The position numbers and the translations under genes were made by a program. Under the pieces are notes generated by a model. The model saw nothing but the letters and a program-made list of their open reading frames with translations. It was not told the DNA's origin and ran no database searches. This document shows, one piece after another, positions 163 to 54,001 of a DNA stretch of 57,716 nucleotides. Origin of the DNA: a virus; IMG/VR virus record IMGVR_UViG_3300044759_000129, positions 1 to 57,716 of that record; one strand, written 5' to 3'. Within the stretch, counting starts at the first letter, position 1. The number at the start of each line of letters is the position of its first letter.

Positions 163-591
163 CTAGCGGGTGGCCAGGGCGGGCTGGCGCGAGCGGGCCA
201 CCGTCCAGAATGGCCCCTGCCATTCGGCCTCGGGTAGCATCCGGTCATGTCCCGGATGGCCGCCGTTCGAGGCCGGATGGCTGGCGGTTGCGGTCGGGTA
301 TCCGGACGGGGCGGACGGGTGGTCATCGTGAGTCCGCACGTAGGCATCCATGATCCGGATGGCTTCAGCCACCGTGACGGGCCGTTCCTCCTCTCCATAA
401 AAGGCGGAGGGCCGCACCCCTAGGACATTCGCAAAGCGCGGGAGCTGGTCACACTCGATCTGCCGAGCACCCCGTTCGTAGTGCGACAGCGCGGACTGTG
501 AGATGTGCAGCATCTCCGCCAATTCCTCCTGACTCAGCCGCCGCTCCCGCCTGATCTCTCGTAGCCGGTCACCTACCCGCTGGGCCGTCAT
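163..591 (-). CDS. XRE-family HTH repressor (cI-like)
   Basis: Internal ATG at 591 of ORF 163..636, preceded by GGAGGGA. HTH motif LSQEELAEMLHISQSALSHYERG. Divergent from the cro-like operon. Confidence 0.8.
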   Translation of the reverse strand: MTAQRVGDRLREIRRERRLSQEELAEMLHISQSALSHYERGARQIECDQLPRFANVLGVRPSAFYGEEERPVTVAEAIRIMDAYVRTHDDHPSAPSGYPTATASHPASNGGHPGHDRMLPEAEWQGPFWTVARSRQPALATR

Positions 592-4328: not shown

Positions 4329-4890
4329 GCATGGCAGGCACGGCAACCCATGGCGAGGCATGCCTTGGCGCGGCGCGCGTGGCACGGCATGGCAGGCGAG
4401 GCGTGGATGGCACGGACCGGGAGGCACGGCTGGGCAAGGACCGGCCGGGCGCGGCGGGGATGAGGCATGGCATGGCAGGCGTGGCTTGCCGTGGCGTGGA
4501 CAGGACGGGCGAGGCGAGAGATTGGCGTGGCAAGGCAGGCATGGCATGGCCAGACCTGGCATGGCATGGCCGGGCGAGGCCGGGATAGGCAAGGCAGGCG
4601 TGGCTGGGCCTGGAAGGCCGGGCGAGGCGTGGCCTGGATTGGCAAGGCAGGCGAGGCCCGACGAGGCTGGGTGAGGCACGACGAGGCTCGACGCGACGAG
4701 GACCGGCATGGCAGGCGAGGCATGGCATGACCTGGCGGGACCTGGTTGGCACGCACCGGCGAGACGAGGCAAGGCGCGGCAGGCGGAGCGAGGAACGGCA
4801 GGGCCAGGCGGCGCAGGGCCAGGCGCGGCAGGCAAGGCGCGGATGGCATGGCCAGGCGCGGGTGGCACGGCAAGACGCGGCAAGGCATGA
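4329..4890 (+). repeat. Degenerate pentanucleotide (GGCNN)n tract, G-rich on the plus strand, non-coding
   Basis: Stepping 5 nt at a time gives GGCAT GGCAG GCACG and so on for more than 100 units. The core GGCATGGCA recurs. All six frames are open and encode only low-complexity peptides. Confidence 0.85.
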
Positions 4891-4916
4891 CAACAACGAG
4901 ACAAGGAGCACCCCAC

Positions 4917-5795
4917 ATGAGCACCGATATCGCGGTCCGATCCGTCGACCCGCCCGTCGGGCACGGGTTCAGCCACCAGAAGCGCGACCTCCTCAAAGCA
5001 ACCTATGCGCGCGGCACCAGCGACGACGAATTCGCCCTGTTCGTCGCCGTGTGCAATCGCACCGGCCTCGACCCCTTCTCCCGCCAGATTTACGCCATCC
5101 GCCGCTGGGACGCCCGCGAAGGGCGCGAGGTCATGACCATCCAGGTATCCATCGACGGCCTCCGCCTCCAGGCCGAGCGCTCCGGCAAGTACGAAGGCCA
5201 GACGTCCGTCATGTGGTGCGGTCCCGACGGCCAGTGGACCGACGTCTGGCTGCAGGACGACCCACCCGCAGCAGCGAAAGTCGGGGTGTACAAGACGGGT
5301 CACCGCGAGCCCACCTATGCCGTCGCCACCTATCGCAGCTACTGCCAGACCAAGAAGGGCGGCGGCCCCACCGTCATGTGGGGCAACATGCCCGACATCC
5401 TCCTCGCCAAGTGCGCCGAGGCCCTGGCCATTCGGAAGGTGTTCCCCGCCGAGACCAGCGGGTTGTACACCGGGGATGAGATGGCGCAGGCCGACAACGA
5501 GGTCATCCGCCAGGTCCTACCCGCCAGGTCCGAACCGATCGACACGGGCGACTCGGGTGAGATTCCCTTCGACGATTCCGACCCACCCGCACTCGATCCG
5601 CACCGCGTCGTGGCCTACAACCAGCTCATCCGCCGCGCCCTCATGGCCAACAACGCCGCCAACGTGGCAGGCCGCCCCGAACCCATTGACCTGGCCGCGT
5701 GGGAGATCCTGGCGGGTACGACGCTCGAGCAGTTGAACGACAAGGGCGCGCGGCTCAAGGCGAAGCTGCAGGAGATCGAAGCCGTCAGCGTCTAG
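4917..5795 (+). CDS. recT: RecT-family single-strand annealing recombinase
   Basis: AAGGAG SD plus ATG at 4917. Motifs [22 protein letters not shown] and [18 protein letters not shown]. Confidence 0.85.
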
Positions 5796-5862: not shown

Positions 5863-6210
5863 ATGATCACCCACTTCGGCCCCGACCACCTCTGCCCCGA
5901 CTGCGACGAGGTGTTCATCTACTGGTGGGTCGGCACCCGGGGCGAGACCCGCTGCATGGAAGTGGAGCACTGCCGCCCCCATATGTGTGCCATCAGCCTG
6001 CAGCAGGCCGAGATCAGCAAGACGCGCTGCCCCGACTGTCGGCTCTCTGTCTATCAGTACCAGGACCAGCTCTACGACGAGGACGCCGCGCTGGTCCGCC
6101 ACCAGTGTGAACGCGCCAGCCAGCAGCAGCCAGCAGCCGTCCGCCCGCCCCCCGTCAAGGTGGCGCCCGTGCCCGCGCGACCCCTGCCCCCGCACGTTCC
6201 CACTCTCTAG
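5863..6210 (+). CDS. Cys/His-rich hypothetical protein (115 aa)
   Basis: ORF track; CPDCD...CRPHMC...CPDC motifs. Confidence 0.55.
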   Translation: MITHFGPDHLCPDCDEVFIYWWVGTRGETRCMEVEHCRPHMCAISLQQAEISKTRCPDCRLSVYQYQDQLYDEDAALVRHQCERASQQQPAAVRPPPVKVAPVPARPLPPHVPTL

Positions 6211-6224
6211 GTTAGGAAGCCACG

Positions 6225-7586
6225 GTGCAGATTGCCGAGCATAACACGGCCCTCGATGTTACGAAACCGTTTCGCCGGGACGGACTCGGCTTCCGCTACG
6301 CGCCGGTCGACGCCGCCGGGCACACCTACGGTGTCACCTTGAAGGTGGACTACATCCATCGCCGCTCCGACGAGATGACCGGCGAGGTCCTGGTCGAGGC
6401 CGACCTCCCCGGCATCCCCGCGCATGTGCATCAGGCCCGGCTCAACCTCACCTCCACCGTCAGCCGCGAGACCCTAGTCAAACATCTGCACCTTAAAACG
6501 AAGGACCGCGTGCCGTGGCGCGAGCTGATCGAGCTCTTCTGCGCCGCGGTGCTGCGCGCCGAGCGCGAGGGGGAGCCCTTCCTGCGCGTGGGCCAGATGC
6601 CCTACGCGGCGGACCCACCCGACCTGGTCAACCTCCTCGTGCCCGACCAGATGATCACCCTGCTCTACGCCGCCGGCGGCGTCGGCAAGGGCTGGATCGC
6701 CACGGCGGCCAGTGTCGCCGTCGAGAACGGCCTCAGCCTCGCCGGGCTCCCGGCCATGCAGCGCGAGACCCTCTACCTCGACTGGGAGGACACGCCGGCC
6801 CGCCTCAACCAGCGCGTGCAGATGGTCACCACCGGCCTGCGGCTCGAGGACTTCAAGCCCCTGCACTACCGCGCCTGTCGCGGGTCCCTGCCGCGCCAGA
6901 TCAACCAGGTGGCGCGCTACGTCACCGAGCACAACATCGGCTTTCTCGTCGTCGACTCGGTCGAGCTGGCCTGTGGCGCCAGCGCAGAACACCGCAGCTA
7001 CGAGGACAAGGCCCAGGAATTTTTCGAAGCGTTGCGCTATCTCGGCCCGATCGCGGTGCTCTGCATCGACCACATCAGCGCCGAGGCATCGCAGAACACC
7101 GGGGGCGCGAACAAAGCGTTCGGCTCCTTTCTCAAGATGGCGTGGGTGCGCTGCGCGTGGGAGGCGCGCAAGGATCAGATGACCGGCGCATCGACGACCC
7201 TGCTCGGCCTCTACAACACCAAGACGAATCACCGGAGCCAGGTGATGCCGCTGGGATTCGCCCTGGACTTTACCGAGAGACAGCAGGTGACCATCACACG
7301 GGCAGACGTCCGCGATTCAGACGAGCTCGTCAAACCCATGCCCACCGCCGAACGGATCGCCGCCGCGCTCTGGCACCGCACCAAGACGGTCAAGGAGATC
7401 GCGGAGGAGTCCGGCCTCAAGGAGGAGGTGGTGCGCACCACGCTCAATCGGGGGAAAGGGAAACGGTTCGAGACCGATCCCGTGGGCCGCTGGGGCCTCA
7501 TCAGCAACTCCCAGTCGAGAGCGCGCGACAACGGGTCAGACGCGAGGCTCGTCCAGCTAGATGACGGTAGCCATGTGTTCTTCTAG
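6225..7586 (+). CDS. RepA-like AAA_25 / RecA-fold replicative helicase-type ATPase
   Basis: GTG start. Walker A LLYAAGGVGKGW, Walker B FLVVDSVE. C-terminal HTH-like TVKEIAEESGL. Confidence 0.8.
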   Translation: MQIAEHNTALDVTKPFRRDGLGFRYAPVDAAGHTYGVTLKVDYIHRRSDEMTGEVLVEADLPGIPAHVHQARLNLTSTVSRETLVKHLHLKTKDRVPWRELIELFCAAVLRAEREGEPFLRVGQMPYAADPPDLVNLLVPDQMITLLYAAGGVGKGWIATAASVAVENGLSLAGLPAMQRETLYLDWEDTPARLNQRVQMVTTGLRLEDFKPLHYRACRGSLPRQINQVARYVTEHNIGFLVVDSVELACGASAEHRSYEDKAQEFFEALRYLGPIAVLCIDHISAEASQNTGGANKAFGSFLKMAWVRCAWEARKDQMTGASTTLLGLYNTKTNHRSQVMPLGFALDFTERQQVTITRADVRDSDELVKPMPTAERIAAALWHRTKTVKEIAEESGLKEEVVRTTLNRGKGKRFETDPVGRWGLISNSQSRARDNGSDARLVQLDDGSHVFF

Positions 7587-7592
7587 CTGTCG

Positions 7593-7730
7593 GCATAACA
7601 CGAGCATAACAGGGGCATAACACGGGGAAATTTCGTGCGTGGGAAGGGGCATAACACGGAGGGTATATATTACATATATACCCCCCTCCATGTTATGCGG
7701 TCCCTTCCTGGCAGACGTTATGTCAGGAGG
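7593..7730. promoter_or_regulatory. GCATAACA repeat array plus AT-rich palindrome (candidate origin or operator/promoter)
   Basis: GCATAACA at 7593, 7604, 7615 and 7649; inverted TGTTATGC at 7691; AT core at 7664..7680. Confidence 0.6.
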
Positions 7731-7739
7731 AACAGCGCT

Positions 7740-7928
7740 ATGTCCACCCTGGTTCCGGAAAAAAAAGAACGTCCTTCTGTCCTGTTCGAGCGGGCCGCTC
7801 ACCGGTGTGATGGCTGTCGGAAGGAGCGCACCGTCTGGAAGATCAGGCTCGGCTATCGCCCGGGCATCTTCCTGTGTGCGGACTGCCTCGTCTGGGCGGC
7901 ACGGCAGCTTACCGAGCAGCCGTCTTGA
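7740..7928 (+). CDS. Small ClpX-type C4 zinc-finger-like protein (62 aa)
   Basis: AGGAGG SD plus ATG at 7740. Motif CDGCRKE...FLCADCLVWAARQL. Confidence 0.55.
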   Translation: MSTLVPEKKERPSVLFERAAHRCDGCRKERTVWKIRLGYRPGIFLCADCLVWAARQLTEQPS

Positions 7929-9778: not shown

Positions 9779-10068
9779 GCCTGCCGCCCGTCACGGAGAA
9801 GCAGCTTCAGGCGCAAGTCCTCGATCTCGCCCACGTGCTGGGCTGGATGACGTACCACTCCTGGATCTCGATCCGTAGTGCGCCAGGATGGCCGGACCTC
9901 GTCCTGCTGCGCCCACCCCGGATCATCTTCGCCGAGCTCAAGACGCAAAACGGCCGCGTCAACGTCGCGCAGCACCAATGGCTCGATGCGCTCGGCGACT
10001 GCCCCGGCGTCGAGGTGTTTTGTTGGCGCCCGTCCGACCTCGAAGCCATCGCCGAGCTCTTGCGGTGA
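9775..10068 (+). CDS. VRR-NUC domain nuclease
   Basis: Motif GWPDLVLL...IFAELKTQNGRVNVAQHQWLDAL. Confidence 0.8.
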   Translation: MSLPPVTEKQLQAQVLDLAHVLGWMTYHSWISIRSAPGWPDLVLLRPPRIIFAELKTQNGRVNVAQHQWLDALGDCPGVEVFCWRPSDLEAIAELLR

Positions 10069-10138
10069 ACCGGTGAGACGAAACTGGACCCGCGTGGTGG
10101 TTGCACGACTCGACCGCAGAACACGGGAGGTGATACCG

Positions 10139-10534
10139 ATGCGTGACGACTTTTCGACCCTATTACGGTCCTACCGCGAGCGCGCCGGGCGCTCCCGCAA
10201 CAACCTCGCCCACGAGATTGGCATCGACCCTTCCTATTTGACCAGGTGTGAGCACGGCGACCGCGACCCCCCGCGCCAGCACATCATCGAAGCCCTGGCC
10301 CGCGCGTTGCGCATGAGTGTGCCCGAGCGCAACCGGCTGCTCGTGTCTGCGGGATTCGCGCCGCTTAGCGTGATGCAGCTCGGGGCCTGGGATGATGCGC
10401 TCCAGGCGGTCACGGATGTGCTCAACGACGTTCACCTGTCGCCTGAGGAGCGCGATGAGTTCCGGAGTGTGGTGCGCCTCATCGCTGCCCGCTGGCGCGG
10501 CGGCGCGAAGCTCAGCCCGCGGTTCGCCTCGTGA
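10139..10534 (+). CDS. XRE-like HTH transcriptional regulator (131 aa)
   Basis: GGGAGG SD plus ATG at 10139. Motif RNNLAHEIGIDPSYLTRCEHGDR. Confidence 0.7.
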   Translation: MRDDFSTLLRSYRERAGRSRNNLAHEIGIDPSYLTRCEHGDRDPPRQHIIEALARALRMSVPERNRLLVSAGFAPLSVMQLGAWDDALQAVTDVLNDVHLSPEERDEFRSVVRLIAARWRGGAKLSPRFAS

Positions 10535-32442: not shown

Positions 32443-32646
32443 CTATACTCTCACGTTCCGTTTGAGACGGGACAGCTCCCGGCGGCCGACGTCGAAGAGG
32501 ACGTAGTTCCCATCACGGAGGCGGCGCACTTCCACGACACACAGCATCCCGCTCTGGCTCCGCAGGTGGGTAATGATGTCGTCCACCATCATGCGCTCGG
32601 TGGCGGTCAGGTGCTCGCCCCAGACCCGTGGCTCGGCCGTCCTCAC
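32443..32646 (-). CDS. Hypothetical small protein (67 aa)
   Basis: The GTG at 32646 overlaps the stop of the giant gene (GTGA). Confidence 0.45.
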   Translation of the reverse strand: MRTAEPRVWGEHLTATERMMVDDIITHLRSQSGMLCVVEVRRLRDGNYVLFDVGRRELSRLKRNVRV

Positions 32647-35600
32647 TCGCCGCCCCCGCCCAGCCGCTCGCGGCGCGTCCGCTGAAACTCCCGTCGCTCG
32701 CGGCTTCCCTCGCCGCGCTCCTCCCGCCGGGTATTCGCCCACTCGCCGTACGGGTCGGTTTCCTCATACTGGTCCCGCATGCGCTCCTGCGCCGGGGTCA
32801 GGGGCTCGCCCTTCCGCCACCGCTCGTAGTTCCGCGTGATCTGCTGCTCCAGCTCGACCGACTCCACCGCCTTACCGGTCTGGACATTCATCCAGCGCCA
32901 GGGCTGGCCGGGCTCACGGCGCATGGGCAATTCCAGCCGCGCTTTCTCCCCTTCCCGTTGCGTCTCCCGCATCTTGTTGATACGGTCGATGCGGGCAGCC
33001 GGCCCCAGCCGCTCCCACTCCGGGGTGCCGAGCTGACTGGCCAGCCAGACCCGGAACAGCTCACCAGACTCCTGCTGGAAGGCGCGGAACGCCTCGCGCG
33101 GGATCCGATTCGGCTCGACCCCTTGCGGCAGCCGGTCCTCCGGGAAGCCGGGCTGCGGGCCCCGCACCCGATTGGCATCGGCCCACTGCTGCAGCTTCGC
33201 CAGCTCGATCTCGGCCGGGTCCGTCGTCTCGGCCGAGGGACGGGTGATGTCCAATGCCCGCAGCCCACGCTGTCCCTCCGGACGCTGGACTTCCTGGCCA
33301 ACCGCATTCAGCTTGGCCGGGACCCGACCCGTCAAGCCCGGGATACTGGCGAGCACCCCCTCGACGGGACCTTCCGGGTCACGGATCACCTGGTCGCTGG
33401 CACGCGCCAGGAAGCGCAGGAACGCACTGGCCGGGAGCAGCATGGAGGGCGGCGTGCGCTCGGCATAGTCCTGGAATGCCTTCGGCCACTGGTCGGCGGG
33501 GCGCTCGAGGATGTTGAGCACGTCGGCCAGGCCCTGCGTAAATGGTTGATCGAGCACGCTGCGCGCCAACCCGAGCACCCAGATCCCCAGCAGCTCCTGC
33601 GCCTCCTGGGTCTGGCCCTTCTGCGCCAGATCGGCAGCAGTCGCGGCCCCCGCCAGGAGGGCGGAGAAGGGCTGCGCCCACTGATAACTGTGCCACTCGT
33701 CCCCGACCTTGATGCTGTAGGGCTGCTTCCCCTGCCGATAGAAGGCGTCCCGCTCCGCATCGTTGCGTGGCGGCGCCCCGGTAATCAGCCCCTGCTCTGC
33801 CATGCCCTTGACCCCGAGCAGGATGCCCGTACCGATCGAGAGCCGTCCCATATAGTCGGCGAACTCGCCCTGGGTCATCGTGCCGCGCGCCATGTCGATG
33901 ATCTTCGCTGGCAGCGTGGCCAGGGCCAGCGGGCTCCGCTCGGCCATGTATTTGGTCAGGTTCCACGGCGTCTGATGGAACGGCACGAGCACGCGCAGCC
34001 CGGGGCTCTGCTCCTTGAGCCGGGAGAAGCCCTCGACAAAGGTGCCCCCCTGCTGAAAGGTGTGATACTTCCCGGCCTCCATGGCACGGGCAATCATCTC
34101 CTCGGTCGGATTCGCCCGCAGGTCCGCGATGCGCTCGGCCAGCGCCTCCCCCGTCTTGCCTTCCATCTTTGCGATGCGGTACGCCTCGCCGTACAGCTCG
34201 GACATGCGCCCCATGGTGCTGTAGAACGCATCATTGGCGCGCAGCAGCCGACTGTGGATGTTGGGGACCAGGCCACGCACGTCATCCGGGATCTCTACGG
34301 GTCCCACCCGACCGGGCAGCCGCACCGGCTCCCGCAGCACCGCCCCCATGTCCTGACGCCCGACGATCTCCCCTTCGGTGAAGCCCTGCTTCAAGATGTG
34401 CAGCGCCTGCTTCGACGCATCCGGCAGCGCAGTCAGAGCGCCAATCAGCCGCTCCGGCACCTCACGCGCATAGCGCTCCTGCGGTGTACGCGTCACCACC
34501 GCTAGGGCCTTGCTGTACGGCGCCGCCGCCGCTGGCTCCACGATGCTCCCGGCCAGCGCCAGCCCCGAGGAGGCGAAGTCCCGGATCCGACCGACCGGAG
34601 AGGTCAGCAGATTGAAGTACAGATACCAGTTGAAGTAGTCCTTCGGGGTTGGACTGAAGAGCGCGCGGGCGGCGCCGGCCACGGCGTGGGGATCCTCCAG
34701 GTCGATGTCACGGAGCAGGCGGGCCAGGTCGTCGGTCTTGCCGGCTTTGCCCGCCATGCGGGTCAGCTCGTCCAGACGGCGAACGACCACACCGGCCGGG
34801 TCCTCCCCCACCACGGGCTGGCGGAACTGGCGGAGCGCGCGGCCCGCTTCCGCCGTCACACCGGAGACCACCTCCTGGAGTCCGCGGAAGCGCAGCAGCT
34901 CCTCGCCGAGGCGGAGCATATCGCCGCTCGCGGCGGCCGGGTCGGCGGTCCGGAAGGCCTGCTGCGCCTCCTGCACGGCCCGCGCCTGGGTGCCGAGGGC
35001 TTCCCGCAGGGCCAGCGCGGTCTCGGCGTTGACCGCATCGCCCGGCTTCCAGCGATCGGCAACACGCTGCGCGTCGATGCCGGAGTAGCGAGAAAGATCA
35101 CGAACCACGTCGTCGGGAATCACGCCCCGGCGGGCTTCCTCGAAGAGCTGCGGGTTGGCGTCGTACTCACGGAGAATCTGCTGCTGGATCTCCTCGGGGT
35201 ACTTGCGGAGCAGGATGTTGCCGGCAAACTCGGGGACGTCCTCGGTCGGCATGGGGCCGAGACCGGCGCGGAACGGACGATTGGCCCCACCGAGGGTGTC
35301 GGCCAGGTCCTCGAACTGGCGCCCGGCCCGGCCAAGGGCGCGAGCGGCGCCGTAGCCACCGGCGGCCCCGAGCGCGGCCCGGGCCAGCCGCTCCTGCAGG
35401 GTGGTGTTCTCGTCGGTGCCGAGCTGGGAGGCCCCGGCCCCGGCGGCGGCGCTGCCGAGTTCAGCGGCGAAGCGCGGGTCGGCGCGGCCGTAGAGCGCAT
35501 GGCCCCGGGTGAGGGAGGACTCGCGCATCCGGGGGGTGATGTCCATGCTGTGGACGGCCTGGGTCACCTCCTGCCCGGTGAGCGGGTCGATGGCGGGCGC

Positions 35601-38600
35601 CAACCGGGTCTCGCCGGGCGTCGCGCCGAAGGCTTTGCCGATGCGGCGCGCGGTGTTGGTCAGGATGTTGTCGTAGAAGGAACGCATCCCGGTCTGGGCA
35701 CGCCATGCGCTCTCCTCGAGGTCGGGGATACCAGCCGGACCCGCACCCATGATCTCGTCCTCGACACCGGCGTAGTAGCGCTGGTACTGCTGGTCGCCGG
35801 TGGTCCAGGCAATGCGGTCGTAGCCGTTTTCCGACGCCCAGCGCACCATGCGGTTCATGGCGAGGTCCGGCCACGACTTCGAGAAGGGGGCGGCGGGCAC
35901 AGCACCGGTGGGACGAAACTGCGCCGGCGTACGCTGGGACGGATCGAGCGGATCGAAGTAGCCGCTCTGGCGGCCGGCCTGGTGCCAGTCGCTCTGGATC
36001 TCCTCGATCATGAGCACCTTCGCACCGTCCTGCGCGGTGTGGTCCGAGAAGCGGACGTGGGCGAGGATGTTCTCCTGCGGGTAGTGCGGCGAGGTGTAGA
36101 CGTCCGGGCCGACGTCTGGCGTGCGCAGCAGCAGCTCGCGGTAGTTCTGACCACCGGGGAGGCGGTAACTCTGGTACTCGTATGAGGGTTGGAAGTTGTA
36201 GGCAGTCTGTTGGGCCGCATCCTGTGCGGCCTCCAGGGAGGGATACAGATCCCGGGTACCACCGGGCGAACGAACCACGTACCCGGAGGGGACCTGATCT
36301 ATGTCGAACCGCTGCCCACCAGGGAGCTCGGCACTCCACGCGGCGTTGCCGCCATACTGCCCTCGGCCACCACGCCAGTCGAGCATGGCTGAACCACGCG
36401 GGTCCACCTCCTCAACGGTGACGGCGTTGTTGCGCAGGTACTCCAGCACGTCGTCCTTCTGCAGCGGCGCGCCCGTCTCCCGAGCCCGGTCGAGCAGGAC
36501 GTCCATGCCGCTCCAGCGGCGCTCGTCCTCTTTGACCGGGCTATTGCGCAGCAGGCCCTCGATCTGGTCAGGGGTGGCGCGCTCGGGCATGCGCTGCTGC
36601 AGGGTCTCCTCGAGCCGCGAGAAGTAGACCGGGACGGTGGGCTCGGCGGGTTGCGCGTGCGGGAAGCGCTCGGCGCGCTCGGGTAAACCCGGTGGGAGCA
36701 GGCCCGCAATGTCGGGCTGCGTGAGCTGACGAGGGGCCGGCGGGATATCGGGGACGCGAGGAGTCGGGGCCATCTGCGCCGCACGACCCAGCGCCCCCAG
36801 GCCACGCACGCCAGCGACGGCCCCTTCCCCAGCCAGACCCACCGCATTGGTCGGGTCAATTCCGAGGCCGATCACGTTTCGGGTCACACCGGCCGCAGCA
36901 CTCGGTGCTACCCCGTAGGCCAGCGCCGCGCTGGCGAGACCCGTCGCCAGCTCGCTGGCCCCGAAGGCGGGGTGGCGCTCCGCGGCCCGGAACCCGGTGT
37001 CCTCGCCACGAGACCCGGCGGCAGCGGCGTTGTAGGCATCGGCGGCCGCCAGGGTCCGCGGATCCTCATAGCCATAGTCCGTGATCGCCTGCTGGAGCGC
37101 GTTCCACTCGGCCTGTGTTTCGGAGGCGATGACGTCCTCGGCCATGCCCGCTCGCGCCGCACCCGTCAGGGGGCCAGCCGCCGCGCCGACGATCTCCCGC
37201 AGGTTGGTCTGGCCACCGGGGACGGGAACTTCCACACTCCCCAGATTCCAGGCCGCCTCGCCCACGGCATTTGCCGCACCGCCGAGCGTCTGGCCGGCCT
37301 GATCCCAGAAGGTTTGCGGCTCGGCCGGCCCCTGCAATTCACTGACGGCGTCCTCGGCCCACTGCCGGTACAGCGCTTCCTCGTTCTCCGGTACCTGCGG
37401 AGCCGGCGTCTCCCGGGTCGGCAGGTTCAGTCCCTGGAGAGCCTCCCGGGTGGCGGGGCCGGTGATGACCTCCCGATTCTCACTCGTGTTCCCCTCGAGG
37501 GTGGCGACGCTCGGGACGGGCGACGCCGGGTTGTCCAGGTAGAGCACGCCGTTGATGCCGCTCCCGGCCAGACGACGGCTCGCCTCGTTCATCTGGCCTA
37601 TCGTCATCCAGTCACTGCCCCCGTACCGGGAGACGACCGTGCCACTGGTTCCGACGTGGTAGCGGCCATCCCGATAGGCGTCGGCCACGAAGTAGTGGCC
37701 CGCCGAGGAGATGGTGACCGGGTTGCCGCCCTGGATGTCCCGAATGATGGGGGCCTCGTCGGGCCGCTCGCCGGTGACGACGACGCGGTTCGGGATGCCC
37801 ATGCGGTCGAGCAGCCGACCCTGGTTGGCGATGCCGTTCATGCCGCCACCGGGGGTCCAGTTCACCTGTTTCGCCAGGTCGAGGGCCTCCCGCAGGGTGG
37901 GGTTCCGCCCCATGGCGCGGGCAAAGGCGACCGCTGCCGCCGGACCGCACGCGGCCGCACTTTCGGATGCACTCAGCGTGCGGTCGGCGTACTGGTTGGG
38001 CACGAGGTCCGGGTTGCCGACGGTGCCGGGGGCGTTGACCGCCGGGATGGTGCCGCGCTCCTGGATCTCCTGCTGCGGCGCCGGCTCCGGGAAGACGAAG
38101 TCCTCGGGGACCTGTGGGCCAAGGGTCTCGGGCCATTGCTCGGGTGGCGGCGGGGCGGGTGGGCCGAGGATCTCCAACCCCTGCTGGGGCTGCGCCACCG
38201 GCTCGAAGTCCTCGGGCATGGGGGGGCCAATGAATGGCTCGGGCTCCGGCTCGGCGATGCCCTGGGCGCCGAAGTTGATGTCGGTCCCCCAGTCGCTGCC
38301 ACCGGCCTGCGCCATGACCGGGTAGCGCATGCCGCCAAACGTGACGTAGTCGCCCTCGTCATTCTGGGCGACGACGGGTGGCGGCGCCTCTGCGCGGGGC
38401 GGTGGCTCCGGGGTGCGGCCCTGAAGGATGCGGTCCAGGTAGGTCCGGGTCTCCTGGAAGGGACGGCCCGAGCGGAGGGCGTCTACTGCACGGGGGCCAC
38501 CGTTGTAGGCCGTGAGCGCCAGGCGGTAGTCGCCACCGTACTGGGTGAGCAGGTCCCGCATGTGGAAGGCAGCAGCGTCGAGGCCGTGCTGCGGGTCGGT

Positions 38601-39320
38601 CATGATGCGGTTGGCGTCGGTCTGATAGCCGGCCCGGTTCATCTGATTGGCTACGGCAGAAGCGGTGGATGGGATGAACTGGCCGATACCCGTGGCGCCA
38701 GCCGAGCTGCGGCGCTGGCCGGTGATGACGTCCTGGGACCAGCCCGATTCCTGGCCGATCTGGCGCAGAAAGACGTCGGGCTCGAGCCCGTGGCGGGTCG
38801 CCGTCTGCCAGGCATAGTCCTGCAGTGGGTTCAGGGCTGGCCGTGATGGAGGGATCGGCGCCGGCTCGGGTTCGGGCTGCCACTGCTGGACGGGCTCAGG
38901 TTTGGGCTGGTCGCGGTACTGCTCCCAGGCCTGCTGCTGCTCGCGCCAGTCATACGGCATGGTCTGGGTGGGCTGCGTGAGGGTGCCGCCGCTCCTGGCG
39001 TCGTAGATGCTGGGCGTGGGGGCCTGGTTCTGCCAGGAGGTCCAGCCGATGTTCTCGTACGGGGGCGGCGGCTCGGGCTGCCAGAGCTCGGGGGGCGGCG
39101 GTTCGTACGCGGCGGCGGCCTGGGCGGCGATCTCGGCCCGTTCGGCTTCGATCTCGTCCAGCCAGCGCTCGTATTCGCGCTGTTCGGCCTCGGCGGCGGC
39201 TTGGCGTTCCGCTTCCTCCTGCTGACGGCGTTCCTCTTCCTGCTTTTCCCATTCCTCGAACGAGCTATCGAACTCGTCAGCAGTCCACTCGGAATACAGG
39301 TCTTCTGGCACCAGGACCAT
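32643..39320 (-). CDS. Giant polyvalent virion protein (2225 aa): SLT lytic transglycosylase plus C39-like Cys peptidase plus large uncharacterised regions
   Basis: SLT motif RQIGQESGW...GATGIGQF...AYNGG. Peptidase motif AAACGPAAAVAF...AGHYFVADAY. Also IEEIQSDWHQAG. Confidence 0.85.
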   Translation of the reverse strand: MVLVPEDLYSEWTADEFDSSFEEWEKQEEERRQQEEAERQAAAEAEQREYERWLDEIEAERAEIAAQAAAAYEPPPPELWQPEPPPPYENIGWTSWQNQAPTPSIYDARSGGTLTQPTQTMPYDWREQQQAWEQYRDQPKPEPVQQWQPEPEPAPIPPSRPALNPLQDYAWQTATRHGLEPDVFLRQIGQESGWSQDVITGQRRSSAGATGIGQFIPSTASAVANQMNRAGYQTDANRIMTDPQHGLDAAAFHMRDLLTQYGGDYRLALTAYNGGPRAVDALRSGRPFQETRTYLDRILQGRTPEPPPRAEAPPPVVAQNDEGDYVTFGGMRYPVMAQAGGSDWGTDINFGAQGIAEPEPEPFIGPPMPEDFEPVAQPQQGLEILGPPAPPPPEQWPETLGPQVPEDFVFPEPAPQQEIQERGTIPAVNAPGTVGNPDLVPNQYADRTLSASESAAACGPAAAVAFARAMGRNPTLREALDLAKQVNWTPGGGMNGIANQGRLLDRMGIPNRVVVTGERPDEAPIIRDIQGGNPVTISSAGHYFVADAYRDGRYHVGTSGTVVSRYGGSDWMTIGQMNEASRRLAGSGINGVLYLDNPASPVPSVATLEGNTSENREVITGPATREALQGLNLPTRETPAPQVPENEEALYRQWAEDAVSELQGPAEPQTFWDQAGQTLGGAANAVGEAAWNLGSVEVPVPGGQTNLREIVGAAAGPLTGAARAGMAEDVIASETQAEWNALQQAITDYGYEDPRTLAAADAYNAAAAGSRGEDTGFRAAERHPAFGASELATGLASAALAYGVAPSAAAGVTRNVIGLGIDPTNAVGLAGEGAVAGVRGLGALGRAAQMAPTPRVPDIPPAPRQLTQPDIAGLLPPGLPERAERFPHAQPAEPTVPVYFSRLEETLQQRMPERATPDQIEGLLRNSPVKEDERRWSGMDVLLDRARETGAPLQKDDVLEYLRNNAVTVEEVDPRGSAMLDWRGGRGQYGGNAAWSAELPGGQRFDIDQVPSGYVVRSPGGTRDLYPSLEAAQDAAQQTAYNFQPSYEYQSYRLPGGQNYRELLLRTPDVGPDVYTSPHYPQENILAHVRFSDHTAQDGAKVLMIEEIQSDWHQAGRQSGYFDPLDPSQRTPAQFRPTGAVPAAPFSKSWPDLAMNRMVRWASENGYDRIAWTTGDQQYQRYYAGVEDEIMGAGPAGIPDLEESAWRAQTGMRSFYDNILTNTARRIGKAFGATPGETRLAPAIDPLTGQEVTQAVHSMDITPRMRESSLTRGHALYGRADPRFAAELGSAAAGAGASQLGTDENTTLQERLARAALGAAGGYGAARALGRAGRQFEDLADTLGGANRPFRAGLGPMPTEDVPEFAGNILLRKYPEEIQQQILREYDANPQLFEEARRGVIPDDVVRDLSRYSGIDAQRVADRWKPGDAVNAETALALREALGTQARAVQEAQQAFRTADPAAASGDMLRLGEELLRFRGLQEVVSGVTAEAGRALRQFRQPVVGEDPAGVVVRRLDELTRMAGKAGKTDDLARLLRDIDLEDPHAVAGAARALFSPTPKDYFNWYLYFNLLTSPVGRIRDFASSGLALAGSIVEPAAAAPYSKALAVVTRTPQERYAREVPERLIGALTALPDASKQALHILKQGFTEGEIVGRQDMGAVLREPVRLPGRVGPVEIPDDVRGLVPNIHSRLLRANDAFYSTMGRMSELYGEAYRIAKMEGKTGEALAERIADLRANPTEEMIARAMEAGKYHTFQQGGTFVEGFSRLKEQSPGLRVLVPFHQTPWNLTKYMAERSPLALATLPAKIIDMARGTMTQGEFADYMGRLSIGTGILLGVKGMAEQGLITGAPPRNDAERDAFYRQGKQPYSIKVGDEWHSYQWAQPFSALLAGAATAADLAQKGQTQEAQELLGIWVLGLARSVLDQPFTQGLADVLNILERPADQWPKAFQDYAERTPPSMLLPASAFLRFLARASDQVIRDPEGPVEGVLASIPGLTGRVPAKLNAVGQEVQRPEGQRGLRALDITRPSAETTDPAEIELAKLQQWADANRVRGPQPGFPEDRLPQGVEPNRIPREAFRAFQQESGELFRVWLASQLGTPEWERLGPAARIDRINKMRETQREGEKARLELPMRREPGQPWRWMNVQTGKAVESVELEQQITRNYERWRKGEPLTPAQERMRDQYEETDPYGEWANTRREERGEGSRERREFQRTRRERLGGGGE

Positions 39321-41897: not shown

Positions 41898-44800
41898 TCA
41901 CCGACCTATCCCTGCATATCCGCCAGAATAAGCCCCCTGGGCTTTTGACAGTCGGTTTCGCTCGATCAAATCGAGAATATCCGGCACGTAGTACCCTTGT
42001 CGGGTCCACTCACCAATGGCGAGTTCTCGTTCCGAAGGGGACAAGTCGGTCGCCCACGTTCGGTACGAGACCTGTTGGGGCGAAGGGAGCCGGGCCATGA
42101 GGGCGGTCATGGCCGGGTTGGTGGTGGCCGGCGGCGGCGTGCTGGTGGGTGCGGTGAAGCCGCCCCAGGTGAACGGTGGCGTCGGCGTGAACCCGGCCCC
42201 CGGGCTCCCGGGCGTCGGCTGGGGAGCCACGGCCGGGAGGCCGGCCATGGTGCGGGCCTGGGCCAGCGACAGCTGCCCGTAGCCGGGGACGTTGACCAGG
42301 TTCGGATTGGCGGTGGGTGTCCAGGTGGCCTGAGCCGGGAAGCCGGCGGTGTAGATGGTGGCGTTCGGCGGGCTGGTCGGCTGGGCGTGCTGCGGCTCGC
42401 GCGGCACCGGCTGCGGCGCCATGGGGTTCTGGGCCTGCTGGTTCGGCGCCTGCTGCTGCTGCTGCGGGGTGAGCGGCTGTTGTGGATTGGTCAGACTGTT
42501 CAGGTTGGCGGGGGCGGCCGGTGGCGGCGCCTGCTGCACCTGGGGCTGCTGGTTGGACGTGGGGGCGGAGAAGGCCGCGTCCTGCTCCTGCTGGGCGAAG
42601 AGCCGGGCCATGTGCTGGTTGTACTCGTCGCCGAAGCCGTAGTCGATGGGCGCGGCCGGGTTATTCGGGTTCTGGGCGGCTGGCACGATGGCCTCGCCCT
42701 GATGGACGATAGCGGGGCCGGTCTGCGGAACGTAATTGGTGCCAGTCGCGTATTCAGGCCAGCCGGTGCCCTGCGGCCAGGTACCGTAGCCCGGATTCGC
42801 CGTGGGGGAGCCGAAGTCGGCGTGCTGGCCGGTGACGGCGGGACTGTTCTCCCACGACAGCGGCTGGGCGGCACTCTGCGTCGGCTGGGCATAGTTCGGA
42901 TTGGTCCACTGCGGGATCGTAGGCTCCCCACGCAGATAGTCGAGCTGGGCCTGGGTGTGGCCGGTGCCCGGGCCGGTGTTGCGCTGGATGCCGGTGGTGG
43001 CGTTGGCCGAGGTCGGGGCCCCCGCCAGCGCGGCTTTGGCCGCGTCGACCGAGCTGCGCACCTTGGTCTGGATGTACTGCGTGGCGGGGGCGCCGCCGGC
43101 CTCGCCGGGGCGGATGTGGGCCCCCGCCACGTCGGCGTTGGCCCCGGTGCGGTAGACGCCGGGCGAGTCGGGCTGCCAGCTCGAGACGGCCGGCATGCCG
43201 TAGCCGCCGCTGTAGTACATGCTGTTCGGCTCGTAGCCCGGCATCCAGTTCGGGTTGCCGGTGGTGTTGCCGGGCTGGATGCCCCCGCCGTAGGGGGTAT
43301 ACGGGGTGTAGGGCTGCTGCCCGGTCGGCGGGGCTCCGGTGGGGGGCGGGGTCGTGCCGGTGGGCGGCGGTGGCGTGGTGACGGCGGGCTGCTGTTGCTG
43401 CGCCTGCTGCATCATCGCCATGACGTACTGCATCGCGTTCTGACCCTGCGGGCTCTGCTGCGCCTGCGGCGTCGGGAAGGACTGCAGGTAGGCCTGGTAC
43501 ATCTGCGCCACGATCGACGGGCCGCCGCTCTGGTAGGGGGCCGCGCCGATCTGGGGCACCGCCGGGATGGGGATGCCCATGAAATTGCCCGTCATGGCCG
43601 GCATCCCGGGGAGCCCGCTCAAGGTCGGCGCCTGGAAACTGCCACCGAACCCGCCGAAGCTCATGGCTTGCGACTGCTGCCCAGATGCGGGTGCAGCAGC
43701 AGGTGCGGGAGTCTGAGACGGACGGACCGAGCCGTCCGGCATCGTGACTGAGCCGTCGGCCTGAATGACCGGCTCCCCCCTGGCTGCTGCCGAGCCCTCC
43801 TGCACCCATTGGCCCTGCATATTCTGGACCTGATACTGCGGGGTATCGGAGATGAGCTGATCGTTCGGGTTCTGCGGCCCGGCCCAGTGCGGCACGGCGT
43901 AGGTGGAGCCGTCCGCTGCCCGGTAGTTCTTCTGCGTCGGCAGCATCCACTCGGTTCCAACCGGGTTGCCCAGCGCGTCGACATCACGAAAGTCCTGGTG
44001 GATCACGCCAGCCGCATCCATGTAGGAGCCGCCGGACTGCTTGATCGGCACCAGGTAGCGCTGCCCCTCCCGCTCATACATGCGGAGCCGCCGCCCGTCG
44101 GGGGCCATCACGTCCGTCGCCCCCTGCACCGGGAAGCCGCCGGCGGGGTCGTTCGCAATAAACATCCCCGCCGCCGCCATCTCCGGGATCTTGGCGATCT
44201 CCGCCTGAATGCGGGCTTTCTCGGTGGTGATCGCCTGATCCATCTGTTCCTGGGTCATATGGCCCCGTGCCACCATGCTCTGCCAGCGGGCCATGTTCTC
44301 ACCCAGCTGATCCTCGGCAAACTGGGCTGGGCGATTCGGGTCGCCGTAGACCTGGAGACCCAGCGCAGCGAAGTCGAGACGCCCATCCGCCCCGTACGGA
44401 CCGGGCTGCTGTGGGGGTGGGGGGCCGCCGGGCTGACCACCAGGCGCGGGGACGCCCTGCCCGACGTTGTCATTCCCGTACGGCGCCGCCGGCGGAACCT
44501 GGCCGGCGGCGGTCGTCCCACCACTCTGACCGGTGATCTGCTGGTAGATGGTGTTCCAGTCCAGGGCGCCGCCCTGCTGGGGGATATTCATGCCGCTCCA
44601 GGGGTTGCCGGCCGGGGACTGGAAGCCGCCGGCGGTCATCTGCTGCCAGGGGGTGTTGTTGAAGTTGAACCCCTGGAAGTTCTGGAAGCCGTTGTCGGCA
44701 AGAAAACTGTCGAGGGTGAGGGGTTCGGAGGGGCCGCCGACCTCGCCGGCGAGCTGGCCGGCACCGGGGGCGAGGGCCGCGAAGGGATTCTGGCCGCCCG

Positions 44801-52800: not shown

Positions 52801-53043
52801 TTAGCCGCAGTACCGTGCGATGTCCGCCTCGATCGGCTGCCGCACCCGGACGTACTCCGGCTCCCGCTCGTCCCAGTAATCCGCGCGGAGCCGCTGCACC
52901 AGGTACGTCCGCTGCTGCAACGCCTCCTGACACACCGAGGTCGCCCGGGCCGCGCTGGCCGCCCGCTCCGTGATCAGGAGGATCCCCCCAACAATGACCA
53001 GCGCCAGCAGGGTGGCGGCCAGGATCGTCAGGATGCGCGTCAC
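52801..53043 (-). CDS. Small membrane-anchored protein (80 aa)
   Basis: ORF track. N-terminal TM segment ILTILAATLLALVIVGGILLI. Confidence 0.5.
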   Translation of the reverse strand: MTRILTILAATLLALVIVGGILLITERAASAARATSVCQEALQQRTYLVQRLRADYWDEREPEYVRVRQPIEADIARYCG

Positions 53044-53309
53044 GCTCCTCCCCCGTCCGTTCGCCGCAGCTCCTCATCCGGGGCCTCCGTCACATTCGGA
53101 ATCTCCTTGCGCCACCCGCCGAACTCCCGGTTCATCAGGTCCAGCTTCTCCCGGATCGCCTGCCGGATGAACCACGCCCGCGACCGCTCCAGTTCCTGCG
53201 CCCACGCGTCCAGGCTCTCGACCATCTCCTCCGTCAGCCACAGGTCCACATGCCTCGGGTACCGCACCCCCCGCCGCTCGTTCGTTTCCGCTTGCCGGTC
53301 ATTCCGCAT
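53040..53309 (-). CDS. Ribbon-helix-helix protein (89 aa)
   Basis: VDLWLTEEMVESLDAWAQELERSRAWFIRQAIREKL. Confidence 0.65.
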   Translation of the reverse strand: MRNDRQAETNERRGVRYPRHVDLWLTEEMVESLDAWAQELERSRAWFIRQAIREKLDLMNREFGGWRKEIPNVTEAPDEELRRTDGGGA

Positions 53310-53550: not shown

Positions 53551-53599
53551 GAAGCGTGCATGTGCCGTACTGGTGGTTTCTTTTTTCTGCTCTCGCCTG

Positions 53600-54001
53600 G
53601 GTGGGAGTGACTACAGGGTGACACCGGCCCTACGCCCCAGCAAGACATGGACGGCACCCGGTGGCCACCCCCCACCCCCACCGGTGGGACGGATACCGGT
53701 ACCGTGGGTGCGCCAGACGGCTACGCTCCCTCCCTGGTGGGAGAACCCGATACCCGTAGGTACCGTGCGTAGGTACGCAGTATGACGTCGGCTGTCCCTA
53801 TGTAGTGGTCACCGTGTTGGTCGGTTGGAGGTGATGGTAAAGATAATCCGCATTATAGGTAGCCCCATGTTGGCTGTCTGCCACGCGTGCCAACTGCCAG
53901 AGACGGAACGGGTGCGCATAACAGACGGCCCGCGTGTTATGCGGGTGTTATGCCGGCCAGGGGGAGGGAGGAGACTACAGGGTATAGAGGGGGAAAGCGG
54001 A
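53600..54001. promoter_or_regulatory. Non-coding repeat-rich region in the late-operon leader (candidate late promoter/operator and/or pac-cos region)
   Basis: GCATAACA/TGTTATGC at 53916..53953. GACTACAGGGT twice, CGTAGGTAC twice, palindrome CCCACCGGTGGG. Minus-strand TATAAT at 53857..53852. Confidence 0.5.

Follow-up and report, generated by a model that had tools for sequence, protein, structure and literature searches.

We identified positions 7587-7740 of a temperate phage genome as its probable origin of replication, with the helicase encoded just upstream as the initiator, and we place the probability of this reading at about three in four. The window is the whole stretch of viral DNA that was analysed, 57,716 nucleotides in length (IMG/VR record IMGVR_UViG_3300044759_000129), and the genome is a 57.6-kb circle with about 66% G+C. 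The reading builds on the statistics of a short repeat, the conserved position and layout of such repeats among relatives, a winged helix predicted in the helicase, a correlation between recognition helix and repeat, and the joint exchange of helicase and repeats as a cassette. From these observations we infer that the array is most likely an origin of the iteron type, and that its binder would be a self-loading initiator-helicase that melts the DNA, loads itself and starts replication there.

The repeat GCATAACA was found in nine exact copies genome-wide, while dinucleotide-preserving shuffles gave an expectation of 0.57 +/- 0.67 and none of them reached nine. Copies begin at 7593, 7604, 7615, 7649, 6239 and 53916 on the plus strand and at 7691, 53935 and 53946 on the minus strand, and two clusters, 7593-7698 and 53916-53953, take in every copy except one. 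A preliminary description of this DNA had placed four direct copies and one inverted copy behind the helicase gene and three more in the late-operon leader. All of these coordinates hold, and the genome-wide count of the 8-mer did not bear out a scatter at chance frequency. Allowing one mismatch to GCATAACAC gave 15 genome matches against 5.5 expected, the surplus consisting of scattered GCAGAACAC-type matches. Tandem copies are spaced by 11 bp in both clusters. Since both clusters are identical in L008 and L027, which are independent assemblies of other samples, they are not assembly artefacts. The main array begins 7 nt past the helicase stop codon and occupies the 154-bp gap between that stop (7586) and the next ATG (7741). 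As in classical iteron origins, the three direct repeats are in helical phase and the AT-richest 17-mer lies 41 bp away. Iterons of opposite direction flank 7664-7680, with four plus-strand copies on the left and one copy plus one degenerate copy, both on the minus strand, on the right. The degenerate copy reported near 7717 is present but weak, and the single good iteron on the right side was counted against an origin. The further copy reported within the helicase gene also exists, but it cannot be counted within the system because its score in a leave-one-out matrix scan (12.2 bits) lies within the range of the top-scoring chance matches from shuffled genomes (maxima 11-20). A role for that copy as an autoregulatory site was rejected as statistically inseparable from chance. 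Table 1 lists the features.

Table 1. Positions of the putative origin, its neighbouring genes and the remote repeat cluster in the window.
Feature	Position	Strand	Basis
115-aa Cys/His-rich (zinc-ribbon-like) protein, Pro-rich tail	5863..6210	+	upstream of helicase
Cassette exchanged in sister phage	6108..7745		blastn of L295 against window: 83-90% homology ends at 6107, restarts at 7746
453-aa putative initiator-helicase gene	6225..7586	+	Pfam AAA_25, E=2.6e-17
Solitary GCATAACAC, 14 nt inside helicase ORF	6239..6247	+	motif count, matrix scan
Predicted winged-helix DNA-binding domain (residues 372-426), recognition helix EEVVRTTLNRGKGK	7338..7502	+	AF2, family alignment
Iterons 1-3 (GCATAACAC, GCATAACAG, GCATAACAC)	7593..7623	+	exact 11-bp spacing
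Extended imperfect palindrome GGGAAGG..GCATAACAC..core..GTGTTATGC..CCTTCCC	7639..7710		fold, inverted repeats I2 and I5
Iteron 4, left outer arm of palindrome	7649..7657	+	motif count, inverted-repeat search
Core hairpin GGGTATATAT-TAC-ATATATACCC, containing AT core 7664-7680; proposed melting/loading site	7661..7683		
Iteron 5 (GCATAACAT on minus strand), right outer arm, facing iteron 4	7690..7698	-	
Degenerate copy GTTATGTC (GACATAAC on minus strand), doubtful member	7717..7724	-	2 mismatches to motif
62-aa CxxC...CxxC ORF, kept in sister phage, outside cassette	7741..7928	+	comparison with sister phage
Terminase large subunit	51355-52791	-	PHROG 2, E=1e-23
Sigma-70-like promoter match CAGACA-17-TATAAT, facing terminase operon	53852..53880	-	consensus match only
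Remote cluster: GCATAACAG 53916 (+); GCATAACAC 53934-53942 (-) and 53945-53953 (-)	53916..53953		

The imperfect palindrome previously noted at 7649..7698 is real. Its arms are 93% complementary at 7649-7663 / 7684-7698 and 92% at 7658-7670 / 7674-7686, and folding of 7632-7715 as single-stranded DNA yielded -23 kcal/mol (z = -5.8). At its heart a TAC loop closes a perfect stem of 10 bp, which was unequalled in 172 other 330-bp windows of the genome. The centre TATATATTACATATATA (7664-7680) contains one G/C in 17 positions, as had been reported, and is the AT-richest 17-mer genome-wide (the runner-up has 3). An easily melted AT core is not, however, what the relatives conserve: most high-GC ones have at the centre a hairpin with a G/C stem and a T-rich loop of 3-4 nt, or else an AT tract adjoining such a hairpin. 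Across relatives the hairpin loops are strand-biased, 13 being T-first and 1 not.

The putative initiator-helicase begins with an N-terminal beta/alpha domain (residues 16-115), continues with an ATPase core of RecA fold and a predicted C-terminal winged helix, and has an acidic tail; the AAA_25 match spans residues 131-285. Its profile matched RadA/Rad51 in the PDB and, weakly and in the ATPase core only, RSF1010 RepA (1g8y, E=1.5e-4); the AF2 model (pLDDT 78) was matched by Foldseek to Rad51/KaiC/RadA folds. In that model the winged helix is built from helices 374-381, 389-396 and 400-409 and a beta hairpin (415-417, 423-425), in a block of pLDDT about 86-93, and it is conserved in the family alignment. 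The family numbers 3,345 clusters at 50% identity (E<=1e-30), and in these phages current annotation of the helicase reads only 'hypothetical' or 'AAA ATPase'. Near-identical DNA was absent from 50,697 phage records, where the helicase protein matched Lactococcus 936-type phages alone (27% over one third of the length), and none of 72,556 plasmid records matched the helicase. The small zinc protein upstream keeps its place beside the helicase in relatives, and in L153 this position is taken by a protein with a DnaG zinc ribbon. There is no recognisable primase gene beside the helicase, only this small protein. The early-region proteins scanned included no separate initiator of the Rep_3 or lambda O type and no helicase loader, and neither a separate RepC iteron binder nor a RepB' primase was recognised near the helicase.

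The same layout was observed in relatives of the helicase at 25-50% identity, where about 30 of some 47 evaluable loci carry their own 7-10-nt repeats right after the helicase stop. These repeats are direct and inverted, surround a short hairpin or AT-rich core, and reach a density 14- to more than 100-fold above the rest of each locus, while the gene downstream of the array varies. Their sequences differ from locus to locus (CGGGACA in L005, GCGCAAC in L009, GCATAAC in L154, CCGGACA in L311, GCTAAAT ten times in L019, AGGAGAC ten times in L313, TGATACGC in L150 and L152, CGAAACAT in L153 and GCGCTGCA in L295). By exact 7-mer count about one in three of these loci has no clear array, and most of those without one belong to the remotest relatives or to low-GC ones. 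Scanning viral contigs for three tandem GCATAACA copies returned only an unrelated AT-rich giant-virus repeat, and for GCGCAAC..GTTGCGC, which might have revealed second clusters in relatives, the matches listed were unrelated contigs. A metagenome scan for GCATAACAnnnGCATAACA gave at least 120 loci, with a helicase relative in none among the matches listed, and a scan of genome contigs gave only a weak match, in a Microthrixaceae MAG.

On these comparisons the repeat sequence tracks the recognition helix of the adjacent protein. P0003 and P0005 have near-identical recognition helices and a common repeat, TGATACGC, and this sharing was predicted before the DNA was read. The helix of the window, RTTLNRGKGK, and that of L014, CTTLNRGKGN, go with a common TAACA core at only 32% overall identity. 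L005, at 42% the closest relative with DNA compared (P0002-P0005 are slightly closer), has the helix RKAANRYRAK and the repeat CGGGACA. In a partial Mantel test controlling for core identity, repeat similarity correlated with helix identity at r=0.26 (permutation p=0.003), a modest partial correlation obtained with repeat consensus sequences picked by eye.

A natural swap was found in a sister phage (L295), whose TerL is 87% identical and whose DNA flanking the helicase is 83-90% identical to the window. Between these flanks the exchanged segment runs from the final ~34 codons of the gene for the zinc protein through the helicase gene and the whole array to the ATG of the next gene. The sister's helicase, its region located by a narrower helicase alignment, is only 40% identical, and its array has changed from GCATAACA to GCGCTGCA around a new AT core. 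Sequence comparison therefore indicates that helicase and array were exchanged together as one cassette. The sister retains the gene for a ribbon-helix-helix protein (RHH, a small DNA-binding fold), the late leader and the downstream genes, and its homologous late leader (77% identical) has neither GCATAACA nor the sister's own repeats. The preliminary description had held that an origin and a phage operator fitted the array equally well. The equal standing does not hold, given the same layout in about 30 divergent phages and the co-exchange of the cassette. Because the layout follows the helicase whatever gene comes next, and because helicase and array swap jointly, the tie is broken towards a helicase-linked origin. 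The 115-aa zinc protein, whose tail swaps along with the helicase, could instead be the true iteron binder, a point counted against our reading.

In the mechanism that we propose, the C-terminal winged helix of the helicase would recognise the GCATAACA(C) iterons, and the three copies phased at 11 bp would present it on the same face of the DNA. The fourth copy and the inverted fifth would bracket a palindrome whose centre is predicted to melt more easily than any other part of the genome. From both flanks, bound protein could then assemble around the palindrome centre, which would open or extrude as a hairpin or cruciform, and the helicase would load itself onto the single-stranded DNA in place of a separate loader, possibly assisted by the small upstream zinc protein. 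Host replisome components would be recruited thereafter, a step that we propose because no DNA polymerase gene was found in the phage. The copies at 53916-53953 would provide the same protein with a second, accessory binding site. Two further observations were counted against an origin: GC skew has no inflection at 7.6 kb, although in phages it mainly tracks transcription, and the array lies inside an operon, where it may have a transcriptional role.

The remote cluster is probably such an accessory binding site for the helicase protein. It lies 11.3 kb from the main array on the 57.6-kb circle and, read on the minus strand, consists of a direct pair spaced by 11 bp and then a single inverted copy, 36-73 bp upstream of the -35 hexamer of the promoter match. 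No strong AT-rich core, tight hairpin or DNA-unwinding element was found at this cluster, and the late leader gave no Rfam match. Its interpretation as a general late-operon operator fails, since the sister keeps the leader and the RHH gene but has no such repeats. It is conceivable, at somewhat less than even odds, that bound helicase protein would regulate late transcription here, so that the packaging operon responds to initiator levels or to replication, and that the site would have no part in replication itself. The leader has a single promoter-like match, with the sites directly upstream of it, and no strong AT core or tight hairpin adjoins them. Plasmid initiators use operator-type inverted repeats, which the arrangement of two direct copies and one inverted copy resembles. 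In L016, likewise, a second cluster of four direct copies and one inverted copy occupies an apparently non-coding stretch upstream of the helicase region. Against this, the promoter is a consensus match only, a repressor would seldom act from so far away as these sites, whose centres precede the predicted start by roughly 70-110 bp, and the late promoter must be independent of them because the sister's homologous leader has none.

With the same odds, the remote cluster may instead serve replication as a second weak origin, as a fork barrier for the switch from circle-to-circle to rolling-circle replication, or as a 'handcuffing' partner of the main array. P4 needs ori plus crr, both with the same repeats, and so offers a precedent for the same iteron in two clusters, here 11.3 kb apart. 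In SPP1, whose oriR together with P4 crr would be the nearest parallels, oriL and oriR lie about 13 kb apart and both are bound by gp38 (PMC6316719). The phage also encodes RecT (4746-5795) and a VRR-NUC nuclease. A replication role is disfavoured by the missing DNA-unwinding element and hairpin and by the absence of the cluster from the sister.

For the main array, we regard transcriptional control as unlikely. The repeats would then be operators through which an HTH, RHH or PadR regulator governs a promoter in the AT core, and at the late leader the same regulator would work the middle/late switch. Alternatively, the hairpin would terminate or attenuate transcription between the helicase gene and the genes downstream. 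The motif does recur 36-73 bp upstream of the CAGACA-17-TATAAT match that points at the terminase operon, the AT core includes hexamers of -10 type (TATATT, for instance), and several candidate regulators are encoded (a CI-like HTH protein at 163-591(-), HTH at 917-1219, HTH_31 at 9878-10534, RHH at 53040-53309(-) and PadR at 54746-55054). However, a scan of 7400-7900 gave no sigma-70-type promoter and no intrinsic terminator, and a promoter is not the conserved feature because the centre is usually G/C-rich in relatives. The hairpin is followed by GCGGTCCCTTCC and not by the T run of an intrinsic terminator. Hairpin terminators lacking a U tract are said to operate in high-GC bacteria, which would leave room for a terminator here. 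The array matched no Rfam family, the sole match in Rfam 15 being a 21-bit miRNA hairpin against a threshold of 90. It is the helicase gene that the array accompanies, neither the downstream gene nor the distant regulators. The sister keeps the late leader, RHH and downstream genes, and its leader carries neither repeat.

Iterons beside a hairpin with a conserved loop are a hallmark of rolling-circle double-strand origins, and an HUH-type nuclease in the helicase N-domain could in principle nick the loop of the hairpin, with the iterons positioning the nuclease in the style of geminiviruses or pT181. An H-x-H motif does fall on a predicted beta strand of the N-domain (HVHQ, residues 67-70), and the strand bias of the loops also speaks for this reading. 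We nevertheless consider this very improbable and dropped it after comparing a separate N-domain model with the PDB: the model (pLDDT 85) had no significant fold match, HUH nucleases included (best E=0.07). The histidines are not invariant (P0007 lacks the first, P0008 and P0009 the second), the N-domain has no conserved tyrosine, and loops of 3-4 nt are too small for known nick sites, so that the sequence data largely refute the idea. A partition (centromere-like) or packaging site is scarcely credible: plasmid centromeres also show phased short direct and inverted repeats, and the second cluster lies near the terminase operon, the usual place of cos/pac sites, but the phage has an integrase (56600-57634(-), Pfam Phage_integrase, twin contig) and no ParA/ParB-type gene beside the array among the proteins scanned, and 46 kb separate the main array from the terminase genes. 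The array changes in step with the helicase and not with the terminase, whose sequence is 87% conserved in a sister with other repeats.

The layout is common to many uncultured phages, and its underlying principle is already known. In the literature on AAA_25 proteins with iterons, and on RepA-like helicases with adjacent phage origins, we found no description of the module. We regard it as possible, if rather doubtful, that this phage is the first recognised case of a large undescribed class, in which self-loading RecA-fold (AAA_25) initiator-helicases (the 3,345 clusters) would recognise their own iterons through a C-terminal winged helix, with loading at a hairpin that stands right after their own gene and shows strand bias (T(T)A(C) in the loop, sense strand). 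Helicase and origin would form one exchangeable cassette that sets replication specificity, and here a remote site at the packaging operon would also link replication to late functions. If the origin reading is true, a simple rule would locate origin and initiator in many uncultured, mostly high-GC phages, namely to search the first 150-400 bp past the helicase stop. The roughly 30 matched pairs of recognition helix and iteron would make a natural series for the evolution of DNA specificity. A swap of helicase and origin between nearly identical phages is of the kind that would set replication incompatibility or allow escape from competitors, and vectors for high-GC hosts might use the 1.9-kb unit 5863-7740 as a minimal replicon.

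Mycobacteriophage RepA systems involve a different protein family (PMC7157519). SPP1 has one protein each for origin binding (gp38), loading (gp39) and unwinding (gp40, a DnaB-type helicase), and its oriL is situated within gene 38. A proposed role of gp38 at oriR is to halt forks and thereby set off the replication switch, aided by a RecT-type annealing protein (PMC6316719). The window resembles SPP1 in having two repeat clusters (11.3 kb apart here), one of them in the late region, and in encoding a RecT-type protein; it differs in that SPP1 divides binding, loading and unwinding among three proteins and places oriL within a gene. RSF1010 (IncQ) enters the comparison through its RepA, which is the nearest solved helicase by sequence, if a weak match. 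In its oriV, iterons stand together with an AT-rich stretch and with palindromic sites for single-strand initiation, and there a separate RepC binds the iterons and RepB' primes at ssiA and ssiB. RepA is not known to have a winged helix like the one predicted in the present helicase.

The origin of pRN1 is a stem-loop 3' of a winged-helix helicase gene, conserved in structure and not in sequence (PMC4234260), and the post-helicase hairpins described here likewise keep structure rather than sequence among relatives. The differences are that pRN1 is an archaeal plasmid whose ORF904 joins a prim-pol to an SF3 helicase, and that its stem-loop is about 100 nt long with no iterons found (PMC2777425, PMC4234260). 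In P4 alpha a single polypeptide holds a C-terminal winged-helix origin-binding domain, an SF3 helicase and a DnaG-type primase domain (PMC2777425). The phage protein likewise unites a helicase and a predicted C-terminal winged helix, whereas a DnaG-type primase domain and SF3 helicase are absent from it. P4 carries the same short repeat in two cis elements kilobases apart, ori and crr, as the window carries its repeat in two separate clusters, whereas the sister phage lacks the remote one.

The likeness to SaPI/PICI elements is found in several features at once. SaPI Rep, an AAA+ (SF3/MCM-like) helicase, binds 6-12 iterons immediately downstream of rep via its C-terminal winged helix, with a specificity that differs between related elements, and the SaPI ori has an AT-rich centre with iterons of opposite orientation on each side, at least two per side (PMC9371898). 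Here, too, the proposed initiator is itself the helicase and has a predicted C-terminal winged helix, element-specific iterons lie just downstream of its ORF, and they face opposite ways around an AT-rich centre, the right side falling below SaPI's two. The present system differs in its RecA-fold AAA_25 motor (with RadA, Rad51, KaiC and RSF1010 RepA as matches) and its other N-domain in place of AAA+, in the tight hairpin at the centre in most relatives in place of a plain AT-rich spacer, and in belonging to a full 57.6-kb temperate phage, not a satellite. If our reading is true, the principle that the initiator is the helicase and the origin lies next to its gene would extend from the AAA+ systems of SaPI, P4 and pRN1 to a RecA-fold helicase, which suggests that this design arose more than once.

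Copies of the repeat GCATAACA number nine on both strands of the window, against 0.57 expected from dinucleotide-preserving shuffles, none of which reached nine, and eight of the nine fall into two clusters: a main array, which occupies all 154 bp from the helicase stop to the following ATG, and a remote cluster in the leader of the late operon. The preliminary description had located every repeat correctly, and its observation is confirmed. One copy that it had counted in, at 6239, is indeed present at that position; it drops out of the repeat system, since a leave-one-out matrix scan did not separate it from chance matches. In both clusters the tandem copies follow one another at a spacing of 11 bp. 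An imperfect palindrome has the fourth and fifth copies of the main array as its outer arms; no other perfect hairpin in the genome is as good as the one at its core, GGGTATATAT-TAC-ATATATACCC (7661-7683), and as single-stranded DNA, 7632-7715 folds with -23 kcal/mol (z = -5.8). Assemblies made independently from other samples contain both clusters with identical sequence. Unrelated high-GC contigs that lack this helicase (L241, L201, L186, L192, L204, L218 and L235) also carry GCATAACA in pairs or clusters, spaced by 10-12 bp, mostly 11 bp, with up to six copies (L241) among the matches listed; in L201 and L186 the pairs adjoin sequences like tRNA 3' ends, an arrangement known from the edges of integrated elements.

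The first 127 bp of the window recur exactly as its last 127 (1-127 = 57590-57716), a direct overlap which shows that the assembly is circular and the genome therefore 57,589 bp long. The same phage is present in two other assemblies, of 57,621 and 57,570 bp, broken at different points. It is a temperate phage of a poorly charted lineage, and the phage and plasmid collections searched held no close relatives. Its terminase is recognised by PHROG 2 only, and several large late proteins (689, 621, 273 and 347 aa) matched neither Pfam nor PHROG. The high G+C content, a DUF6197 protein and a single weak match to a Microthrixaceae MAG do no more than hint at a host among the Actinomycetota.

Positions of the repeats and of the main genes in the window
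Feature	Position	Strand	Remark
Integrase and CI-like repressor	window ends		
Early genes	~0.9 to 11 kb	+	include RecT and helicase
RecT	4746-5795	+	
Zinc protein	5863-6210		115 aa; Cys/His-rich (two CxxC..HxC units), Pro-rich tail
Helicase	6225-7586	+	Pfam AAA_25
GCATAACA, main array	7593, 7604, 7615, 7649	+	
GCATAACA, main array	7691	-	
GCATAACA, remote cluster	53916	+	
GCATAACA, remote cluster	53935, 53946	-	
Remote cluster	53916-53953		between 137-aa ORF and CAGACA-17-TATAAT match facing terminase operon
Long late operon	~53.5 to 11.6 kb	-	small genes first (one RHH protein), then terminase large subunit
Very large late ORF	32643-39320	-	2,225 aa
Very large late ORF	41898-46052	-	1,384 aa

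We compared the DNA surrounding helicase relatives (25-50% identity), taken from contigs of viruses and metagenomes. About 30 of the ~47 evaluable loci have the layout of the window within the 100-400 bp that follow the helicase stop: a locus-specific repeat of 7-10 nt in 4-10 copies, direct and inverted and often spaced by 10-12 bp, which encloses a short hairpin and/or an AT-rich tract. The repeat sequence varies by locus (CGGGACA, GCGCAAC, TGCAACA, TCTAACC, CGTAACG, GCGCACC, CCGGACA, GCTAAAT, TGATACGC, CGAAACAT, GCGCTGCA, AGGAGAC, ACAGACA), as does the gene downstream of the array, and repeat density after the helicase is 14- to >100-fold above that of the rest of each locus. In L005, the closest relative among the loci compared (helicase 42% identical), the skeleton is nearly that of the window in other letters, GCGGGACAC-GACGGGTACTAC-TTAC-GTAGTACCCG..CCGTC-GTGTCCCGC. 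The AT-rich centre had been proposed as an easily melted core. It has the highest AT content of any 17-mer in the genome (7664-7680; one G/C vs three in the runner-up), but in most high-GC relatives this place is taken by a G/C stem whose loop has 3-4 nt, instead of an AT-rich tract; what has been conserved is therefore a hairpin-forming palindrome, not a low melting temperature. Across window 7661-7683, L005, L009-L018, L024, L026, L153 and L154, the loop reads TAC, TTAC, TT(T)A or TTC in the helicase sense in 13 loci and the complement in one (L012); L295, the helicase region of the sister phage IMGVR_UViG_3300044461_000112, is a further exception. This bias suggests that the element acts single-stranded, on one particular strand, and possibly serves as a priming or loading signal. 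In locus L150 (2900-3610), the gene called directly after the helicase (236 aa) overlaps both with the iteron array and with a long stretch rich in pyrimidines; the equivalent region of L152 has no gene call, and the 5' part of the L150 call is probably spurious.

The repeats vary with the helicase that precedes them. The recognition helix, R(T/S)DLARRK(E/D)R, is nearly the same in two relatives, P0003 and P0005, and these two share the iteron TGATACGC, the outcome expected beforehand from the helices. Helix TTLNRGKG and repeat core TAACA are common to the window and locus L014 despite an overall identity of only 32%, and L005, a closer relative than L014, differs from the window in helix and repeat alike. 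Over 171 locus pairs, repeat similarity correlated with recognition-helix identity when ATPase-core identity was controlled (partial r = 0.26, permutation p = 0.003), a modest effect obtained with repeat consensus sequences of the analyst's choice. In the sister phage, whose terminase is 87% identical to that of the window and whose DNA flanking the helicase is 83-90% identical, the segment corresponding to 6108-7745 has been replaced. The sister helicase is just 40% identical, and (A/C)GCGCTGCA stands about 10 times in the sister's intergenic region, where a pair of copies converges on a new AT core, ATATATACAAAACCATT. Of the zinc-protein gene only the last ~34 codons (6108-6210) were exchanged; from there the swapped segment extends as far as the start codon, ATG, of the gene downstream. 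These limits indicate that helicase and array behave as one functional cassette, independent of neighbouring genes and of regulators encoded elsewhere.

The AlphaFold2 model of the helicase (pLDDT 78) comprises an N-terminal beta/alpha domain, a RecA-fold core and a C-terminal winged helix, the last predicted with high confidence as a three-helix bundle and beta hairpin (residues 372-426). Fold and sequence searches returned RadA, Rad51 and KaiC, and RSF1010 RepA weakly. Modelled alone, the N-domain (residues 16-115; 6270-6570) forms a five-stranded sheet with two helices (pLDDT 85), for which Foldseek found no significant match among solved structures in the PDB (best E = 0.07). A profile search yielded 3,345 family clusters at 50% identity (E<=1e-30); nearly all of the best 150 of these match almost the whole profile, winged helix included. 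Many relatives end in an acidic (D/E)-x-(I/V/P)-P-F motif (DEIPF, EDIPFD, PDEPF; EQIPFS in L295; alignment A1), and the tail of the window helicase (7503-7586) terminates in LDDGSHVFF. The relatives' tail resembles the C-terminal tip of bacterial SSB, which recruits replisome partners. The zinc protein keeps its position upstream of the helicase in L005, L150 and L152, and in L153 a protein with a DnaG zinc ribbon occupies it.

The proposal that the main array is a replication origin is thus well supported by comparative genomics. The putative origin would work by binding of the helicase winged helix to the phased iterons and assembly of the helicase on both flanks of the palindrome, whose centre would melt or extrude; the helicase would then load itself and the host replisome would be recruited. 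Sequence comparison suggests that the zinc-protein tail contacts the helicase, and the zinc protein may take part in initiation, because its tail was exchanged together with the helicase and a DnaG zinc-ribbon protein stands in its place in L153. A partition or packaging site was rejected, since an integrase is present and the repeats differ in the sister phage despite the conserved terminase. We also rejected a rolling-circle nick site with an HUH nuclease: the N-domain lacks a significant fold match, its His residues are not invariant and there is no conserved Tyr. Also among the rejected ALTERNATIVES were a sigma-70 promoter or an intrinsic terminator within the array, since a scan of 7400-7900 found neither, and a known RNA family, since the array gave no Rfam match.

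The remote cluster shows no hairpin or marked AT core at its site. The late leader of the sister phage is 77% identical over window 53606-53910; the blastn alignment stops just short of the iteron segment, and in a global alignment conserved sequence flanks a replaced stretch of similar length, with neither GCATAACA nor the sister's own GCGCTGCA. The remote sites therefore go with the specificity of the window helicase and are dispensable for the conserved late promoter and the conserved RHH protein; they represent a lineage-specific addition. Such secondary clusters are not unique to the window: in L016, four direct GCACCAC-type copies of the locus's own iteron and an inverted copy (5378-5430) make up a second cluster, which lies some 0.55 kb upstream of the point where the helicase match begins, in DNA that is apparently non-coding. 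It is possible, at rather less than even odds, that the initiator regulates late transcription from these sites. We consider just as tentatively an accessory role in replication, for example as a fork barrier or pairing site, of the type proposed for SPP1 oriR (PMC6316719). The ~300-nt leader from the promoter-like site to the first late gene (53551-54001, minus strand; locus L275, 380-480) contains blocks conserved in the sister phage, such as GGTGGGGGTGGGGGGTGGCCACCGG and CCGTCCATGTCTTGCTGGGGCGT; it gave no Rfam match, and a cos/pac site or a leader RNA could lie within it.

The main value of these observations lies in a large unannotated helicase family and a clean natural cassette swap; the literature searched held no description of the helicase-array module. 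Closest in layout is SaPI Rep/ori, in which iterons immediately 3' of rep, in opposite-orientation sets around an AT-rich centre, are read by a C-terminal winged helix (PMC9371898). P4 alpha and pRN1 ORF904 likewise join a helicase with a winged helix; in pRN1 the origin, located 3' of the gene, is a stem-loop conserved in structure (PMC2777425, PMC4234260). The motor is AAA+ (SF3-type) in all three, whereas that of the window is a RecA-fold AAA_25 protein, so the module, which would be SaPI-like in its working, lies outside the SaPI family.
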